A stretch of DNA of 64,000 nucleotides from a virus. Below, piece after piece: positions 1 through 6,116 of this stretch. The notes below the pieces were generated by a model. That model ran no database searches. It had not been told where the DNA came from and worked only from the letters and a program-made list of their open reading frames with translations. Both the position numbers and the translations under genes were made by a program. Position 1 is the stretch's first letter. The number at the start of each line of letters is the position of its first letter. The stretch is from positions 32,001 through 96,000 of the IMG/VR virus record IMGVR_UViG_3300042539_000280. One strand, 5' to 3'.

Positions 1-560
1 CTTCCTTCATCGTCATTCTCCACAAATTTCTCTAAACCTTCTTTTTTCTCTTTGCGTTTCTCTTTTTTGACCTGTTCTCTGGCCTCAAAGTTCCTGATAA
101 AGTCATTCAGGTTATCATACATGGTTGAGGAAATCAAGTGATTATCATCACTATCAACCATCAATGCCGCATCAGAGGTATCTAGGACACTTTCCTGAAA
201 CTTCTTATAGATTATATAGCGATTTTTCTCCTCTTTGGAGATACGTCTATGGAAGGCATAGTAGATGATCTGAGTAAAGTAGGCAAAAGGATTACTAGAC
301 TTGGCGGGATCAAAGTTATCGAAGTATAGAAAGCAATTCTCAATAGCATCGGAAACCAATTCATCACGGAACGAATAGTTCATAAAACGAGGCTTATGTG
401 ACAAGTTCTCGGCAATCAAGTAGATACACTTACCAATGTATTCGGAAATACGAGGTTTTTCTTTGCCCTGATCTAAGGCCTCTCTACATTGTCTCTTATA
501 CTCAACAATCTCTTCCAAGAATTTTACGTTATCTACATAATGCTTTTTTGCTTTTGCCAT
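1..560 (-). CDS. gp55: Late-transcription sigma factor (3' end runs off the window)
   Basis: Manual translation from ATG at 560: MAKAKKHYVDNVKFLEEI...YIGKCIYLIAENLSHKPRFMNYSFRDELVSDAIENC..YFDNFDPAKSSNPFAYFTQIIYYAF, the gp55 signature. Not in the ORF track. Confidence 0.93.
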   Translation of the reverse strand, partial: MAKAKKHYVDNVKFLEEIVEYKRQCREALDQGKEKPRISEYIGKCIYLIAENLSHKPRFMNYSFRDELVSDAIENCFLYFDNFDPAKSSNPFAYFTQIIYYAFHRRISKEEKNRYIIYKKFQESVLDTSDAALMVDSDDNHLISSTMYDNLNDFIRNFEAREQVKKEKRKEKKEGLEKFVENDDEG

Positions 561-561
561 A

Positions 562-1326
562 CTATTCCCCAAATCCAAACGGACACTTTTTATCGTTATC
601 TTTTATCATATTTTTACATGCTCTCCATCCATGAAAATATACCAAAGATGGATTATATGACATTTTCTTATATTCCTCTTCCGTTATCAGATGGTTTTTT
701 ACCACCAGTTTCTTTTCCGTCAGTGGTAAAAAATTTGTAAGAGGTTGATTTACTGGTATGATAAACTTATTTTGTTCTTTTGGCAACATAATATTTACAT
801 TAGTGAAACTATTTACCCTAAATTCCATAACTCCGGGTAATACTCTGAAAGAAAATTTATCCAAATTCCATTCCGCACCTAAATTTATAAATTTTATTCC
901 TGTTTTTTCTTTAAAAATCCAAGGACTAGACAATTTCATATGATGATAATCTTCAAACCCCTTTCCTATCTGTTGTCTATTATGTTCTATCGGTTTATCT
1001 CCTGTCGAACAATAATAGTTATATCCTTCTTCCGAAGTTTCAACAAAAAGGTCGGCCCAATGTCGGACACATATGGAGTTTTGAAAATATTCCAAAAAAC
1101 CATAACAATTTTTTAAATTCAATCTACTCTGGTTGGTCAGAATACCCTGATCATCTTTACCTAATGTAAATTCTTCATTGGGTAGTTCTTTCCACCAGTC
1201 AGGAATAGTCTTAGATGATTTAACAATAGGAGTGAATTGATATACATGAGGTTGTGTGGTGTAACAATCCAAATGAATTTTTGGTGTTCGATGAAAAAAA
1301 CTAAACATTTTATCACTTTCTTTCAT
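562..1326 (-). CDS. Hypothetical protein of a family common in aquatic T4-like phages (PDWWK...C.G...KL.SPW...LPG; C-terminal KCPFGF)
   Basis: 254-aa ORF, more AT-rich than its neighbours, sits directly upstream of gp55. Confidence 0.7.
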   Translation of the reverse strand: MKESDKMFSFFHRTPKIHLDCYTTQPHVYQFTPIVKSSKTIPDWWKELPNEEFTLGKDDQGILTNQSRLNLKNCYGFLEYFQNSICVRHWADLFVETSEEGYNYYCSTGDKPIEHNRQQIGKGFEDYHHMKLSSPWIFKEKTGIKFINLGAEWNLDKFSFRVLPGVMEFRVNSFTNVNIMLPKEQNKFIIPVNQPLTNFLPLTEKKLVVKNHLITEEEYKKMSYNPSLVYFHGWRACKNMIKDNDKKCPFGFGE

Positions 1327-1334
1327 TTTGGGGC

Positions 1335-1362
1335 TTGACAGGTTTTAGGAACTGTGTATAAT
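1335..1362 (+). promoter_or_regulatory. Sigma70-type promoter TTGACA-N16-TATAAT, antisense to the flanking genes
   Basis: TTGACA at 1335-1340 and TATAAT at 1357-1362 in the intergenic gap. Confidence 0.7.
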
Positions 1363-1368
1363 ATTCTC

Positions 1369-1435
1369 CGAATCCAACCAACCAATAACCAAACCAAAAC
1401 CGTCGAGCGAAGCGAGACAACATGCGTAAGCATGT
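1369..1435 (+). other. Non-coding A/C tract followed by two mini-hairpins (candidate replication origin or sRNA)
   Basis: (A)ACCA repeats at 1371-1401; GTC-GA-GC-GAA-GC-GA-GAC at 1402-1418; ACATGC-GTAA-GCATGT at 1420-1435. Confidence 0.5.
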
Positions 1436-1440
1436 CCTAC

Positions 1441-1698
1441 CTATACCTCGGTTAGAGACTTGAGTTTTGCTATCTGTTTCTTTAGTACCGGCTCACGATT
1501 GGGCCATTTGATAATAGGCTGTTCGGGGTTCTTTGCTAAGTTCTCCAACAAAGGAAGATAAATCTTCCGAATGGCCTGTAGTCTTTGCTTGAGGTCGTCT
1601 ACCTCGTCTGTAATCGGAGTTAGATCGGCTTCGTCGTCGAAAGTAAATCCGAAATCGTCTCCGCCATCTAAATCGAGATATTTATTCTTCTCTACCAT
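1441..1698 (-). CDS. Hypothetical protein
   Basis: 85-aa ORF translationally coupled (TAATG overlap) to the upstream gene. Confidence 0.7.
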   Translation of the reverse strand: MVEKNKYLDLDGGDDFGFTFDDEADLTPITDEVDDLKQRLQAIRKIYLPLLENLAKNPEQPIIKWPNREPVLKKQIAKLKSLTEV

Positions 1699-2102
1699 TA
1701 GTGATAAACCTTCTTTTCGCTATTCTCTGCTAATTCATCCAAAACTTCTTTTATTCTATCTAAGTCTGTTCTGGATTCCGGTTCTTGTGGTTGTTCTTCG
1801 GAAACACCCGTTAGATGATCGATACTATTCCAATAGTATTCTTCCATATAGTCAGACACACTATGGGTTAGCATAACCTCAACCGCATCGATGACAAATT
1901 CCTGTGTATCACATAGTTTACTATACACCCAAGGCACAAAGGCTACTTGAAGGTAACCTGCGCCTCGGTTTGAAGTCATATATAATCCCTTGAGAGGATT
2001 CATTAGAACATAATACCTACCATTGTCATCTTCGTATTGATAACATTCCGATACAATATCATCACCGTTCTTTAGTCGCAGAAACATAACAACACCAGTC
2101 AT
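1698..2102 (-). CDS. Conserved T4-like hypothetical protein downstream of uvsW (probable Sm-like fold)
   Basis: FLRLKNGDDIV...NPL...F.PW motif; position between uvsW and gp55 is typical. Confidence 0.7.
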   Translation of the reverse strand: MTGVVMFLRLKNGDDIVSECYQYEDDNGRYYVLMNPLKGLYMTSNRGAGYLQVAFVPWVYSKLCDTQEFVIDAVEVMLTHSVSDYMEEYYWNSIDHLTGVSEEQPQEPESRTDLDRIKEVLDELAENSEKKVYH

Positions 2103-2105
2103 GGT

Positions 2106-3593
2106 TTAACCTTTCATATCTATCTTATATATCTTGAACCGGAACCCTTCTTCACTGTAGACTTTTACCCTCTCCATAAAGTGCTTGAGGGTATAATTAT
2201 TTTTCTTTTTCCAACTAAAGTCGTCGGCAATGTCAAAGAGGGTGGCGGATTTCTTTGTGTCACTAATCCGAAGGCCTCTACCGATTGATTGTAGGTTACG
2301 AATCTTGGACTTGGAAGGAGATGCAAAGATGACGTTATCCAAGGCCACGATGTTAGTACCAGTGCTAAGAACACCAACGGACCCAACAAGAATAGCGTTC
2401 CGCTCGTGTTCCAGGATTTTTCTAATTTGTTCTCTATCTTCAACGTCGGTTCCTCCGTGGATAAAGAAAACCTTTCGGCCATCCTTTACCCGTTTGTTGA
2501 GCATGTCATATAGAACCTGACCATGCTTCTCAACATAGTTGAAAAACACAATCGTATTACCTTCCAATGACAATGCAAGGTTGCAAATAAATTTATTTCT
2601 TTCTTTGTTGGCGACAATATAATTGATCTCCGACTTATAGTCCGCAGATTTCATATATTGACATTCTTCCTCACTATACTTTAGCATAAGGCATTTGATA
2701 GTAAGGTCGGCCAGTTGCTTTCTCTCCATAAGTTCTTTGGAACTGATAACTTTATAGATATCACCAAAGAGACCAACGAGAGAAAAATCTACACCAGGAC
2801 CTTTTGGAAGGGTACCGGTTACACCAATACGATACTCCGCATTGACGCAGTTGGTGACGATATTAGACATCACCTTCATGTTCTGGGATTTCTCCACAGC
2901 ACCATGAACTTCATCGACTATAACATAGTCGAATCTCTTGAAATAATCTTTAGGTAAATTCTGCAAAGATTGCCAGGTGGAAATAATGAGTGGACAATCC
3001 ACATCTTTATCCTTGCCCGCATATACACGGTGACAATACTTGGACATATCCTTGCCATTCTTGGTAGAATAGTCCTGAAAGTCAGAATACATCTGTTCGA
3101 CAAGGGCAGCACGAGGAACAATTAGTAGTCCTCTCTTACCTTGTTTCATCAGATACATAAAGATCATATATTGCAATAAGGACTTACCCGAACCAGTAGG
3201 AGATATAACAATCTTCCTTTTAGAACGAATAGCATGGACGAAACCGTCCATCTGATAATCTCTGGGCGGATGCTTAGGATTTAGAGACTCAACAAATTCC
3301 TCAGCCTCGCTAAGTGAAAATGAATTGTCATAAAGTTGATCCGGATATTCTACTTCGTATCCTCTTTCCTCGGCCCATTCAACAACCTTATTAGCAAGAC
3401 CACGGTATATCTGTCTTGTGTTAGGATTGAAAGCACGGATGTATCCATCCCACAACTTTTGTTTGTAGGAAGGTACAAATTGGAATCCTTCTGGACGGAA
3501 AGCAAAGGCGTCACGGAGTTCCCATGCTACATCAACATCACAATCTACACGAATGTAGGAGTGGTTTGCATTAGAAATTTTCAACACTTTCAT
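2106..3593 (-). CDS. uvsW: SF2 RNA-DNA/DNA helicase UvsW
   Basis: PRDYQ, SPTGSGKS Walker A, DEVH, QSIGRGLR; N-terminal WDGYIR. Confidence 0.96.
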   Translation of the reverse strand: MKVLKISNANHSYIRVDCDVDVAWELRDAFAFRPEGFQFVPSYKQKLWDGYIRAFNPNTRQIYRGLANKVVEWAEERGYEVEYPDQLYDNSFSLSEAEEFVESLNPKHPPRDYQMDGFVHAIRSKRKIVISPTGSGKSLLQYMIFMYLMKQGKRGLLIVPRAALVEQMYSDFQDYSTKNGKDMSKYCHRVYAGKDKDVDCPLIISTWQSLQNLPKDYFKRFDYVIVDEVHGAVEKSQNMKVMSNIVTNCVNAEYRIGVTGTLPKGPGVDFSLVGLFGDIYKVISSKELMERKQLADLTIKCLMLKYSEEECQYMKSADYKSEINYIVANKERNKFICNLALSLEGNTIVFFNYVEKHGQVLYDMLNKRVKDGRKVFFIHGGTDVEDREQIRKILEHERNAILVGSVGVLSTGTNIVALDNVIFASPSKSKIRNLQSIGRGLRISDTKKSATLFDIADDFSWKKKNNYTLKHFMERVKVYSEEGFRFKIYKIDMKG

Positions 3594-3608: not shown

Positions 3609-4070
3609 TTATCCCTGACCCTTAGTATATTGAAGATATTTGACGTAGTTGCCTAGGTCCCAGGTACGATTGTTTAGAGACTTTAGAACAGTCTCACAAT
3701 AGGATACAATCTCCTCGTGGGCACCTTTTTTGAGTAGGATTTTGGTGAGGTGAGGATCGGTGGAGAGTTTTTCTTCCTGTGCTGTCCTCATAGTGATAGC
3801 ATTACCCTGCCACTGTTCCCAACCATACTTATTCAAGGTCTCCAGATCGGCATGGCCTTGATAGTAATCACGGCGAATCTCTTTCATATCCTTGTAATCA
3901 TTATCTAGTTTACGGATGACATGACGATGGTAAGACATAATATTGAGGTATTTACCATGTAGATAGGAAATCTTTAGCAGTTCCTTCTCCATGGATGACG
4001 GATCGATATTAGTGTCCTTTGACCATTCGGACATAAGACTGTCAATAGTTACAGGCGGTTTCATAATCAC
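3609..4070 (-). CDS. uvsY: Recombination mediator UvsY
   Basis: W.KD..ID...L...LH.KYL...YY.G...L..R.W pattern; lies between gp3 and uvsW. Confidence 0.9.
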   Translation of the reverse strand: MIMKPPVTIDSLMSEWSKDTNIDPSSMEKELLKISYLHGKYLNIMSYHRHVIRKLDNDYKDMKEIRRDYYQGHADLETLNKYGWEQWQGNAITMRTAQEEKLSTDPHLTKILLKKGAHEEIVSYCETVLKSLNNRTWDLGNYVKYLQYTKGQG

Positions 4071-4088: not shown

Positions 4089-4117
4089 ATTATACTATAA
4101 GATTGATACTAAGTCAA
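4089..4117 (-). promoter_or_regulatory. Sigma70-type promoter for uvsY (TTGACT-N17-TATAAT)
   Basis: Reverse complement of agtcaa (4112-4117) and attata (4089-4094). Confidence 0.7.
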
Positions 4118-4639
4118 TCTCTCAATTTCATAATAATCGTAGCGGAAGGTAAAGTCGGCTACAGGAATGATATCCGCATCCACCTTAGTATCGAAGGAAA
4201 CCATACCGATTGAGGTAGGGTGACAGTTACGGAACTTGAAACGAATGTTAGGATTATTAGAGTTGGTATTTACAGTTAGAAACCCATCAAAGTATAGAGG
4301 TGCAGTAATAGGATTCTGGTGAGGTTTTCTAGCATAATCTTCCCAGTCAGTGATACGGGTAAGAGATTTCAACCATTTGTAAGACTCTTCCCAAATGCGG
4401 AGGTCTTCGTCAATGATGGCCGTGATAGTAAGAGCATCAAAGGTGAGTTTATCACCATGACGATATGTATTGACAAAAGGAGTTGGAACCGATACCTCTG
4501 TGGTAGAGATAGAGGGAATGTTTACGGTCTGACAAAAGTATTTCAAGAATGGTTTATCTGGAATCAAAAACGTAAATTTTGTAGACTGGAGAATAGAGGT
4601 ATTCTCCGGTGTATTGACGTTGAAATTTTCTATTGTCAT
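4109..4639 (-). CDS. gp3: Tail tube terminator / tail completion protein
   Basis: YFCQTVNIPSIS...GDKLTF..L.I..IIDEDL..W...F.NC.PTS; follows gp23. Confidence 0.88.
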   Translation of the reverse strand: MTIENFNVNTPENTSILQSTKFTFLIPDKPFLKYFCQTVNIPSISTTEVSVPTPFVNTYRHGDKLTFDALTITAIIDEDLRIWEESYKWLKSLTRITDWEDYARKPHQNPITAPLYFDGFLTVNTNSNNPNIRFKFRNCHPTSIGMVSFDTKVDADIIPVADFTFRYDYYEIERLT

Positions 4640-4654
4640 GGTTCCTCCGTCTAT

Positions 4655-4661
4655 TATTTAG
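4655..4661 (-). promoter_or_regulatory. Late promoter CTAAATA for gp3
   Basis: Motif just downstream of the gp23 terminator. Confidence 0.65.
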
Positions 4662-4665
4662 GCAT

Positions 4666-4694
4666 AAAAAAAGAGAGGCCCGAAGGCCTCTCTC
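4666..4694 (-). terminator. Rho-independent terminator after gp23
   Basis: GAGAGGCC-TTCG-GGCCTCTC stem with C(UUCG)G loop followed by a T7 run. Confidence 0.92.
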
Positions 4695-4724
4695 TGAGTT
4701 TGCTAACTCTAATCTTATAAGCGA

Positions 4725-6116
4725 TTAGGTTAGGTTTCTTACACGGAAGATGCGGTAATAGATGTTTGTGTTATTACCTGAGTTGGCCTCACGACCAGCA
4801 ACAACACCGTCACCAGCAGCGGTAGCAAATGGGTTTGCAACCATGCCGTAACGAGTCTTGAAGCCAATCTTTGGCTGGAAGGTATCCTGACCGATTGCAC
4901 GAACCATCTGTAGTGGAACGTATGGGCAGTAGAATAGACCAGCGTCAAATGGTGACTGACCACGGTAACCAACGGTTACTAGTTCGTCGCCGTTTGCTGA
5001 ACCACCGAAGTAAGGATCGATGTAAACCTTGATACGACCATGTAGCATACCAACGAAGGTGTTGCCTGTATCGTCAACGGTTAGGTCGGCAGATAGGGCT
5101 GGTGTATAAGAAAGAACACCGGCCATTGCCATGGCGGATGCAACGTCTGATGAAACGATCAGAACGTTACCCTTACCACGACGGGTTGCCTTGGCGATAG
5201 CGTTGGCTTCACGTTCGATGTGGAAGATTAGGCCCTTGAACTTTTCAACTGACCAACGACCGTTTGAGTCGGTGTCTAGATCGAAAGTACCGGCAGTTGT
5301 AACACCATACTGGGCACCAACTGTAGCAGAACGATAAATTGTGCGGATAACCTCACGATTGATTTCAGCAAGAATCTCTGTGGAGAGAATGTTTGCTAGT
5401 TCTGTTTCTGCGTCAAGACCGTGGATTGCCTTTAGGTCCTGTGCAAGTTCAGTGGTGTATTCTGCCTTTAGCGCACGGCTACGAGCAGTAACAGTTACCT
5501 TGTCAATGTTGAATGCCATTTCAGCAAATGCGTTAGAAGCGGCATCGCCTAGTGCTTCTGCCTGTGCTGTGGTCATACCACGGCCAACACCAAATGCAGT
5601 ACCGTCGCCAGATAGGTCGGCAACTGGGTTGTTGTTAGCGGAGTCACCGAATGAGGTGTTTGCCCATGCGGTACCAGCATCACCACCGGTGTTACCAGCA
5701 GCGTTCTTGGAAGAAAATGCGGTATTTGCTTCGAAGAATAGTGCTTCACCTGTAGTGCCTGCACCCTGTGCCTGCTGCTGCTTATAACGTGAACGCATAG
5801 CAAAGATTAGTCCTGTTGGACCAGTCATTGGCTGAACGCCACAAACGTCATAAGCGATTAGGTTTGGAAGCGCACGACGAACTAGGGAGATAAGAATTGG
5901 GTCGTATGAACCAATTGCAGTACCAGTACCTAGGCCACCACCAGCGTTTGTTGGTGCTGCTTCGTTTAGTGTGCGGGCTTCCTCAGCCATTGCCTTTTCT
6001 TGGTTCTCAAGGATAACGGCAGTGACCGCACGGCGGTATGGATCCTTGATCTGGGTGAGACCGTCGTGGTCAAGAACTGGTGACCACTTGGACTCTAGTT
6101 GTTCTGTAAGATACAT
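4725..6116 (-). CDS. gp23: Major capsid protein
   Basis: VCGVQPMTGPTGLIFAMRSRY, SRALKAEYT.ELAQDLKAIHGLDAE.EL, FQPKIGFKTRYG. Confidence 0.99.
   Translation of the reverse strand: MYLTEQLESKWSPVLDHDGLTQIKDPYRRAVTAVILENQEKAMAEEARTLNEAAPTNAGGGLGTGTAIGSYDPILISLVRRALPNLIAYDVCGVQPMTGPTGLIFAMRSRYKQQQAQGAGTTGEALFFEANTAFSSKNAAGNTGGDAGTAWANTSFGDSANNNPVADLSGDGTAFGVGRGMTTAQAEALGDAASNAFAEMAFNIDKVTVTARSRALKAEYTTELAQDLKAIHGLDAETELANILSTEILAEINREVIRTIYRSATVGAQYGVTTAGTFDLDTDSNGRWSVEKFKGLIFHIEREANAIAKATRRGKGNVLIVSSDVASAMAMAGVLSYTPALSADLTVDDTGNTFVGMLHGRIKVYIDPYFGGSANGDELVTVGYRGQSPFDAGLFYCPYVPLQMVRAIGQDTFQPKIGFKTRYGMVANPFATAAGDGVVAGREANSGNNTNIYYRIFRVRNLT

Follow-up and report, generated by a model that had tools for sequence, protein, structure and literature searches.

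The element described here lies in the genome of a freshwater, T4-like phage, the 164-kb IMG/VR virus record IMGVR_UViG_3300042539_000280 (94% complete), of which bases 32001-96000 were analysed as one stretch of 64,000 nt, hereafter the window. The credible genes that surround the element are all encoded on the minus strand. The first-pass annotation had placed the element between uvsW and gp55, but the genes that directly flank the 114-nt spacer in which it is located are p85 and p254. The neighbourhood was as follows:

4725-6116, minus strand: gp23
4109-4639, minus strand: gp3/tail-tube-like gene
3609-4070, minus strand: uvsY
2106-3593, minus strand: uvsW
1698-2102, minus strand: p134
1441-1698, minus strand: p85, the last gene of the uvsY-uvsW-p134-p85 run, whose stop codon (1441-1443) abuts hairpin 2
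1327-1440: spacer of 114 nt that carries the element
562-1326, minus strand: p254 (phrog_7084, DUF6065-like), whose start codon (1326-1324) is 8 nt from the backward -35
3-560, minus strand: gp55

The UvsW of this phage was only 45-47% identical to that of its nearest cultured relatives, the T4-like cyanomyoviruses, and searches of cultured-phage DNA, both near and distant, returned no match. The stretch was found in lake and freshwater metagenomes, and there was no RNA-recorded run carrying it among the 21 lake and freshwater runs that were listed. The N-terminal part of p85 (1441-1698, minus strand) is acidic and includes the stretch DDFGFTFDD; the protein matched nothing in PHROG or Pfam, and the protein atlas returned no function for either p85 or p254. 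On the same strand, gp23 is directly followed by a strong hairpin of the terminator type (4670-4695, minus strand), with UUCG as its loop and a run of T. Just beyond the window, ARAGORN predicted a tmRNA gene at G000:C1 ~96.5-96.9 kb (L358:2410-2787, minus strand) with the tag ANDNNAYEAFALAA; the asterisk that the program attached to this phage tmRNA was taken to mean that it is permuted.

The first-pass annotation had described a plus-strand TTGACA-N16-TATAAT that is aimed at no open reading frame and is followed by a G-free tract and two hairpins. The promoter was confirmed in the sequence at 1335-1362 (plus strand), as were the tract and the hairpins at the positions given below, and thus all of the parts that had been listed were present. 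A palindrome at the start site, here called hp0, had been missed. The element comprises the following parts:

1335-1340, plus strand: -35 TTGACA, preceded by GGGGC and invariant in 40/40 relatives
1357-1362, plus strand: -10 TATAAT, separated from the -35 by a 16-nt spacer and invariant in 40/40 relatives
1363-1373, no strand assigned: hp0 palindrome of 4 bp with a 3-nt centre, which starts immediately behind the -10 and extends across the predicted start
1370, plus strand: predicted transcription start, a G, the 8th nt after the -10
1371-1401, plus strand: G-free A/C-rich tract of 31 nt (A17 C12 T2) with repeated CCA, predicted to be unstructured
1402-1418, plus strand: hairpin 1, with three covarying outer pairs, tandem G.A/A.G, G-C, C-G and a GAA triloop
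1420-1435, plus strand: hairpin 2, with 6 bp (four covarying outer pairs and invariant G-C and C-G) and a GTAA loop

The start at 1370 was placed using the position rule for sigma70 promoters, and its column is a G in 35 of the 40 relatives (columns 46/50: 29 C-G, 5 T-G and 1 A-G). A perfect TTGACA-N15-19-TATAAT occurs 14 times in the 164-kb genome, 13 times on the minus strand and once, at this site, on the plus strand, whereas the reversed pattern that was used as a control was found on neither strand (0/0). With 14 perfect sites against none for the reversed pattern, the backward promoter cannot be put down to chance. The other 13 perfect promoters precede genes with Shine-Dalgarno sequences, and, as judged by its sequence, the backward promoter belongs to the real early-promoter class of the phage. 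No ORF is present downstream of it on the plus strand; a plus-strand ORF at 1354 was considered as its gene and was rejected because it begins inside the -10. The late promoter TATAAATA was not found near the element and showed no enrichment in the window. Another promoter, TTGACT-17-TATAAT (11/12), is situated at 4089-4117 on the minus strand directly upstream of uvsY, and therefore uvsY-uvsW-p134-p85 may be an early operon that faces the backward promoter.

Searches with UvsW, p85 and p254 gathered approximately 100 IMG/VR loci, and the alignment consisted of 40 distinct spacers, in which p85 was 68-100% identical. The gene order uvsW-p134-p85-spacer-(p254)-gp55 is conserved among the relatives, and the arrangement of promoter and hairpins is kept in the source phage and about 50 relatives. 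All 40 distinct spacers contain the promoter, a G-poor A/C-rich tract and both hairpins. The module was also kept at the same place in two loci with a UvsW identity of only ~50%, L149 and L178, the former of which has four mini-hairpins, one with a GTA loop. In most of the relatives, p85 and the mini-hairpin module co-occur, but in L106 and L109 p85 is present and the hairpins are missing. In 13/41 relatives, p254 lies between the backward promoter and gp55, and in L098 a 162-aa ORF has been inserted there (4460-4948), whose C-terminal part matches phrog_2081 'HNH endonuclease' (E 2e-8) and which has no Pfam match. Together, p254 and the ORF of L098 identify this place as one where optional genes are inserted.

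More distant phages keep only a part of this arrangement. In most relatives at 46-53% UvsW identity, the gap between uvsW and gp55 contains a backward promoter that is perfect or nearly so, but no mini-hairpins. In six cultured cyanomyoviruses (S-PM2, S-SRM01, P-TIM68, S-SKS1, S-CAM7 and ACG-2014f; L350-L355), a backward promoter with one or two mismatches is located in the 99-144-nt spacer before g55, again with the mini-hairpins absent, and S-PM2 shares the GGGGC-TTGACA-A context with the promoter of the window. The initial transcribed sequence of the cyanomyoviruses has a common G/T-rich motif, with a G run in 4/6, a composition opposite to that of the window clade. Since the cyanomyoviruses keep the promoter without the hairpins, the promoter and the hairpin module can be regarded as two layers of different age. 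On this comparison, the promoter is the ancient component, shared by the whole family, and the A/C tract with the mini-hairpins came later.

The distribution of the promoter bears on the possibility that it is a device for g55, i.e., a divergent partner that would set g55 expression through polymerase competition, negative supercoils or a held polymerase that blocks read-through from the upstream operon, with the hairpins serving only to pause or stop a useless transcript. Among the relatives that have no p254, 20/27 carry a consensus-like g55 promoter (11 of them perfect) back-to-back with the backward one, with a -35 to -35 gap of 13-24 nt. The backward promoter was found in 6/6 of the cyanomyoviruses that were checked, back-to-back with a g55-strand promoter in 4/6, and it is also present in the IMG/VR relatives at ~50% UvsW identity despite their different transcribed sequence. 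However, in the window and 12 relatives p254 separates the promoter from g55 while the promoter and hairpins are intact, and a role in g55 expression does not explain why two identical hairpin cores and the tandem G.A are so strictly conserved. We consider this explanation unlikely.

The two hairpins are separated by a single unpaired A (1419). In the 40-relative alignment, 97.5% of the cells of hairpin 1 are paired, with double changes in 4/5 pairs, and 99.1% of those of hairpin 2, with double changes in 4/6 pairs; together, 8/11 pairs have changes on both sides, and 0/500 shuffles and no slid register came near these values. The check on relatives that the first-pass annotation had proposed thus came out in its favour, with both promoter and hairpins conserved and the latter showing compensatory changes. 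The loop of hairpin 1 is GAA in 38 relatives and GTA in 2, and that of hairpin 2 is GTAA in the window and GAA in the other 39. Over all 80 hairpins, the loops are GAA in 77, GTA in 2 and GTAA in 1 (the window), with an invariant closing C-G and invariant G..A, and it is the middle that varies. The inner G-C is replaced by A-T, with both sides changed, in two sequences. The 12-nt core of hairpin 1 occurs once in 164 kb, and this site was the only match in the genome to a two-hairpin covariance model (47.5 bits, E 1.7e-10). At the Rfam gathering threshold there were no matches in the window, and a permissive search gave two chance-level matches (E 0.3 and 5.6), both outside the hairpins.

The assignment of the hairpins to the mini-hairpin class, which had been made from the sequence, holds for both of them, as they follow the GCGNAGC/GCGNNAGC rule with an invariant closing C-G. 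This rule describes DNA mini-hairpins and has been linked to the G4 oric, RSF1010 ssiA and N4 promoters (Kimoto and Hirao 2026, PMC13037366). Less of the claim that the first hairpin works on the plus strand only could be retained. Energy models still predict a mirror-strand hairpin with a 2x2 U.C/C.U loop (-10.9 vs -12.6 kcal/mol for both hairpins), and the case for the plus strand comes from the tandem G.A and A.G of hairpin 1, which are found in 40/40 relatives. For the plus strand, RNA folding gave z = -4.1 and an ensemble frequency of 0.80 for the two hairpins, and the RNA from the predicted start is predicted to consist of 32 unpaired nt followed by exactly two hairpins; the fold of the minus strand, with z = -0.5, is no better than shuffles.

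These values also weigh on the view that the element acts on the gene strand, where it would terminate the uvsY-uvsW-p134-p85 message or stabilise its 3' end; the A/C tract would then represent the opposite strand of a U/G-rich tail. A U/G-rich run does come after the mirror hairpins in the window, the last gene always has its stop codon directly beside the element, and Watson-Crick covariation is strand-neutral. Against this, there is no reason for an invariant 2x2 U.C/C.U loop to be kept in hairpin 1, most of the relatives have no U run beside the hairpin, the minus-strand fold is not better than shuffles, and p254 has no promoter of its own, which means that sense transcription probably passes through. 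A gene-strand signal is thus very improbable, and a sense-strand terminator was rejected as unsupported in the relatives on the same two grounds, the missing U run in most of them and the minus-strand z = -0.5. The spacer of the window also contains a 36-aa hydrophobic ORF (1433..1323, minus strand), whose stop overlaps the p254 start in an ATGA. That it is a small protein gene is improbable in the extreme, and it was rejected because the relatives have stops in all three gene-strand frames and out-of-frame changes in the length of the tract.

In the relatives, the tract is 24-54 nt long, and its sequence and length vary while its composition is kept (A 39, C 31, T 19 and G 11% in the clade). 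CCA is enriched more than two-fold in the clade tracts, with 129 occurrences observed vs 55 +/- 5.6 in shuffles, and no conserved single-stranded seed was found in the tract. At hp0, 78% of the cells in the alignment are paired, with double changes in 4/4 pairs, and a Watson-Crick stem of at least 3 bp is present at this place in 33/40 clade members; the corresponding figures are 14/42 for the genome's remaining promoters and 36% for random sites. A palindrome of the hp0 type accompanies the promoter in most of the lineages, distant relatives included, with differing sequences; it begins 0-1 nt after the -10, for example in P-TIM68 (6 bp), in L075 and L076 (5 bp) and in L109 (4 bp). Because it straddles the start site, hp0 is not wholly within the backward transcript, and its 5' arm cannot be part of any RNA from the backward promoter.

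An early non-coding RNA is a possible explanation of the element, whether as a discrete RNA of ~65-90 nt or as a longer cis-antisense RNA that extends into p85, p134 and uvsW. A discrete RNA would begin with an unstructured A/C-rich part and end in two hairpins, which would block 3' exonucleases or make the polymerase pause for Rho. A cis-antisense RNA would form a duplex with the sense message at the 3' end of the latter, like the lambda OOP RNA vs cII, or its synthesis would collide with sense transcription, and it would damp the early expression of the uvsW run and the read-through into p254/gp55. A consensus promoter makes RNA, and here it is perfect and conserved, with a conserved G at the predicted start. 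The strong covariation and the plus-strand fold (z = -4.1), with its well-defined two-hairpin ensemble and a minus strand that is not significant, also fit an RNA, as does the C-rich, G-poor unstructured leader, which resembles a Rho loading site as such sites are generally known. The predicted start is 71 nt from the stop codon of p85 with no terminator between them, a geometry that suits cis-antisense action, and in the genomes of the p254 type the sense message crosses the element to reach p254, which provides a fully complementary partner. No component beyond these would be required for an antisense or insulating role, and in T4, uvsW must be held back early (PMC3016281).

Other features are difficult to reconcile with an RNA. 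No intrinsic terminator (hairpin and U-run) follows hairpin 2 in the window or in any of the 40 relatives, and the element does not conform to a trans-acting sRNA; the leader is variable in sequence and length and has no conserved seed, and no Rfam family is matched. GNA triloops are not favoured as stable RNA loops, and an antisense role leaves the 79/80 loops of a single motif unexplained. G.U was found in 0 of ~270 cells of the constrained variable pairs, and the 8 T.G that did occur were all in the loose terminal pair, which makes the stems more DNA-like than RNA-like. Finally, hp0 is partly outside the RNA.

Comparison with lambdoid phages shows partial likeness only. The lambda OOP RNA is a short transcript from a constitutive host-type promoter, is antisense to the 3' end of its neighbour and is made in the vicinity of replication functions. 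A role as primer was once suggested for it; it ends at an intrinsic terminator and lacks a conserved motif of twin hairpins. The element shares the host-type promoter that is antisense to the 3' end of the neighbour, but it has twin hairpins and no terminator. In lambda nut (boxB) and HK022 put, conserved hairpins of small size, their loops rich in purines, lie no more than tens of nt downstream of an early promoter; put has two of them side by side, and both nut and put serve downstream genes. The element, in contrast, encodes nothing downstream on its strand and has no sequence or Rfam similarity to nut/put. DNA hairpins with 5-7 bp stems and GGA/GAA triloops also act as the promoters of the N4 virion RNA polymerase (PMC13037366), but these need an N4-type single-subunit polymerase, and none is expected in a T4-like phage.

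The explanation that we tentatively prefer is that the element is a transcription-opened start signal on single-stranded DNA, i.e., an origin, which acts in cis as an early unit without a gene. In the mechanism that we infer, the host RNA polymerase would start at the perfect promoter soon after infection and would run backwards against uvsY-uvsW-p134-p85, opening the duplex. The non-template (plus) strand, almost without G for ~30 nt, would fold only into the two mini-hairpins and would stay single-stranded with these two very stable, SSB-resistant structures, which might mark the entry point of the phage primosome or primase, and either the transcript or a primase product would then prime the first fork. 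A promoter-driven origin in the manner of the T4 oriF, oriG and oriE would in this way be joined to ssi-type hairpins in the manner of the G4 oric and RSF1010 ssiA.

Several observations argue for this origin. The promoter is real and orphan, being the only perfect plus-strand one of 14 and having no ORF downstream, and it is present in a single copy among genes for replication and recombination. Both hairpins share one core, and their loops obey the DNA mini-hairpin rule exactly, which are points for DNA as the folded species, and a palindrome that extends across the start site and is not wholly in the RNA points the same way. The lack of a terminator after hairpin 2 in any of the relatives is as expected for an origin transcript. 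That the cyanomyoviruses keep the promoter but not the transcribed sequence fits a need for transcription as such.

T4 offers the closest precedent for a promoter of this kind. The origins oriF and oriG are defined by a promoter and an A+T-rich unwinding element, oriE uses an early promoter, and at T4 origins the primosome has been proposed to gain access to an exposed non-template strand (Kreuzer and Brister 2010, PMC3016281). Like oriF(uvsY), oriG(34) and oriE, the candidate origin has a promoter with no need for a protein product and belongs to a T4-type phage that encodes UvsW, and its sigma70 consensus class predicts activity before late transcription, as is expected of an origin of the oriF/oriG type. 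It differs in that it has no A+T-rich unwinding element and that its promoter is antisense and gene-less, whereas the promoters of the T4 origins also serve genes. We know of no conserved mini-hairpins at the T4 origins. Such hairpins are found at the G4 oric and RSF1010 ssiA, where strand-specific GCGNAGC/GCGNNAGC or CCGAAGG hairpins that are SSB-resistant lie beside the primase start (PMC13037366). Both hairpins of the element are strand-specific mini-hairpins of the same core type, GCGNAGC or GCGNNAGC, as in ssi signals. However, the G4 and RSF1010 signals act on DNA that is already single-stranded (a ssDNA phage and plasmid leading-strand displacement, respectively), while the element would need its promoter to expose the strand, and no conserved primase site was found beside its hairpins.

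The same 11-nt tandem-G.A core, with paired flanks and in tandem, was found in two Acinetobacter plasmid contigs (L309:3300-3560 and L252:1830-1980). In both, the hairpin pairs are situated between the MobA/MobL relaxase and Rep_3 initiator genes and adjoin AT-rich iteron-like repeats, a position that argues for the origin reading. This parallel is a resemblance, and the plasmid hairpins could serve transfer (oriT) instead of replication. The plasmid cases were the only ones examined further from a pattern scan of bacterial genomes that gave at least 120 matches, which is about the chance expectation for 18 fixed bases, few of them with both stems paired. In addition, an unrelated 15-kb viral contig (L148:5500-5760) has five GCGAAGC mini-hairpins with covarying stems in a non-coding gap. 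They have A/T-rich spacers, and the neighbouring genes, amidoligase-like and DUF3310, give no clue. That this core recurs both in origin regions of plasmids and in viral contigs with no relation to the phage suggests a nucleic-acid signal that is widespread and has yet to be named.

Other results count against an origin. The A+T content after the start is 59%, the genome mean, and the nearest-neighbour duplex energy of the next 30-50 bp shows average stability or a resistance to melting above that of 45-88% of the genome windows; an A+T-rich unwinding element is thus absent. The cumulative GC skew is monotonic with no turn at the site; it is uninformative because it is dominated by one-strand transcription, and in Syn9, for which a 'single theta origin' has reportedly been published, the genes of the first 50 kb are almost all on one strand. 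Without an unwinding element and a skew turn, we do not file the element as a member of the T4 oriF/oriG type, although by analogy it may still work like a T4 origin, with the G-free strand and hairpins replacing the unwinding element. A G-poor transcript does not favour a persistent RNA-DNA hybrid, the cyanophages that have the promoter without the mini-hairpins indicate that the hairpins are not essential to its role, and the predicted RNA fold matches the DNA fold in quality. Watson-Crick covariation cannot tell DNA from RNA. Of the earlier suggestion of an origin or an antisense RNA, the early promoter class, the conservation and the mini-hairpin rule have stood, while the likeness to oriF and oriG has not, in view of the missing unwinding element and skew turn. 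The explanations are ranked with an origin signal first, an early non-coding or antisense RNA second and a promoter device for g55 third.

The element is real, strongly conserved and non-coding, and it is apparently undescribed, as no description of it was found in the accessible literature. In a fuller form, which we hold with less confidence than the origin signal itself, it might be the replication origin of a large cyanophage-like branch of the T4 phages, in which an early promoter and a G-free strand with ssi-type mini-hairpins replace the unwinding element and of which the promoter half goes back to S-PM2 and P-TIM68. Cyanophage-like T4 phages are among the most abundant viruses of lakes and oceans, and to our knowledge their replication origins are unknown. 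A single-copy, strongly conserved and gene-less promoter beside g55 is a concrete candidate for the origin site in cultured phages such as S-PM2, P-TIM68 and Syn9. Should the hairpins work at the DNA level, no dsDNA phage would previously have been shown to join a transcription-opened origin to ssi-type mini-hairpins; should they work as RNA, they would constitute a phage RNA motif that is new and well supported, with twin GNA triloops as an unusual design.
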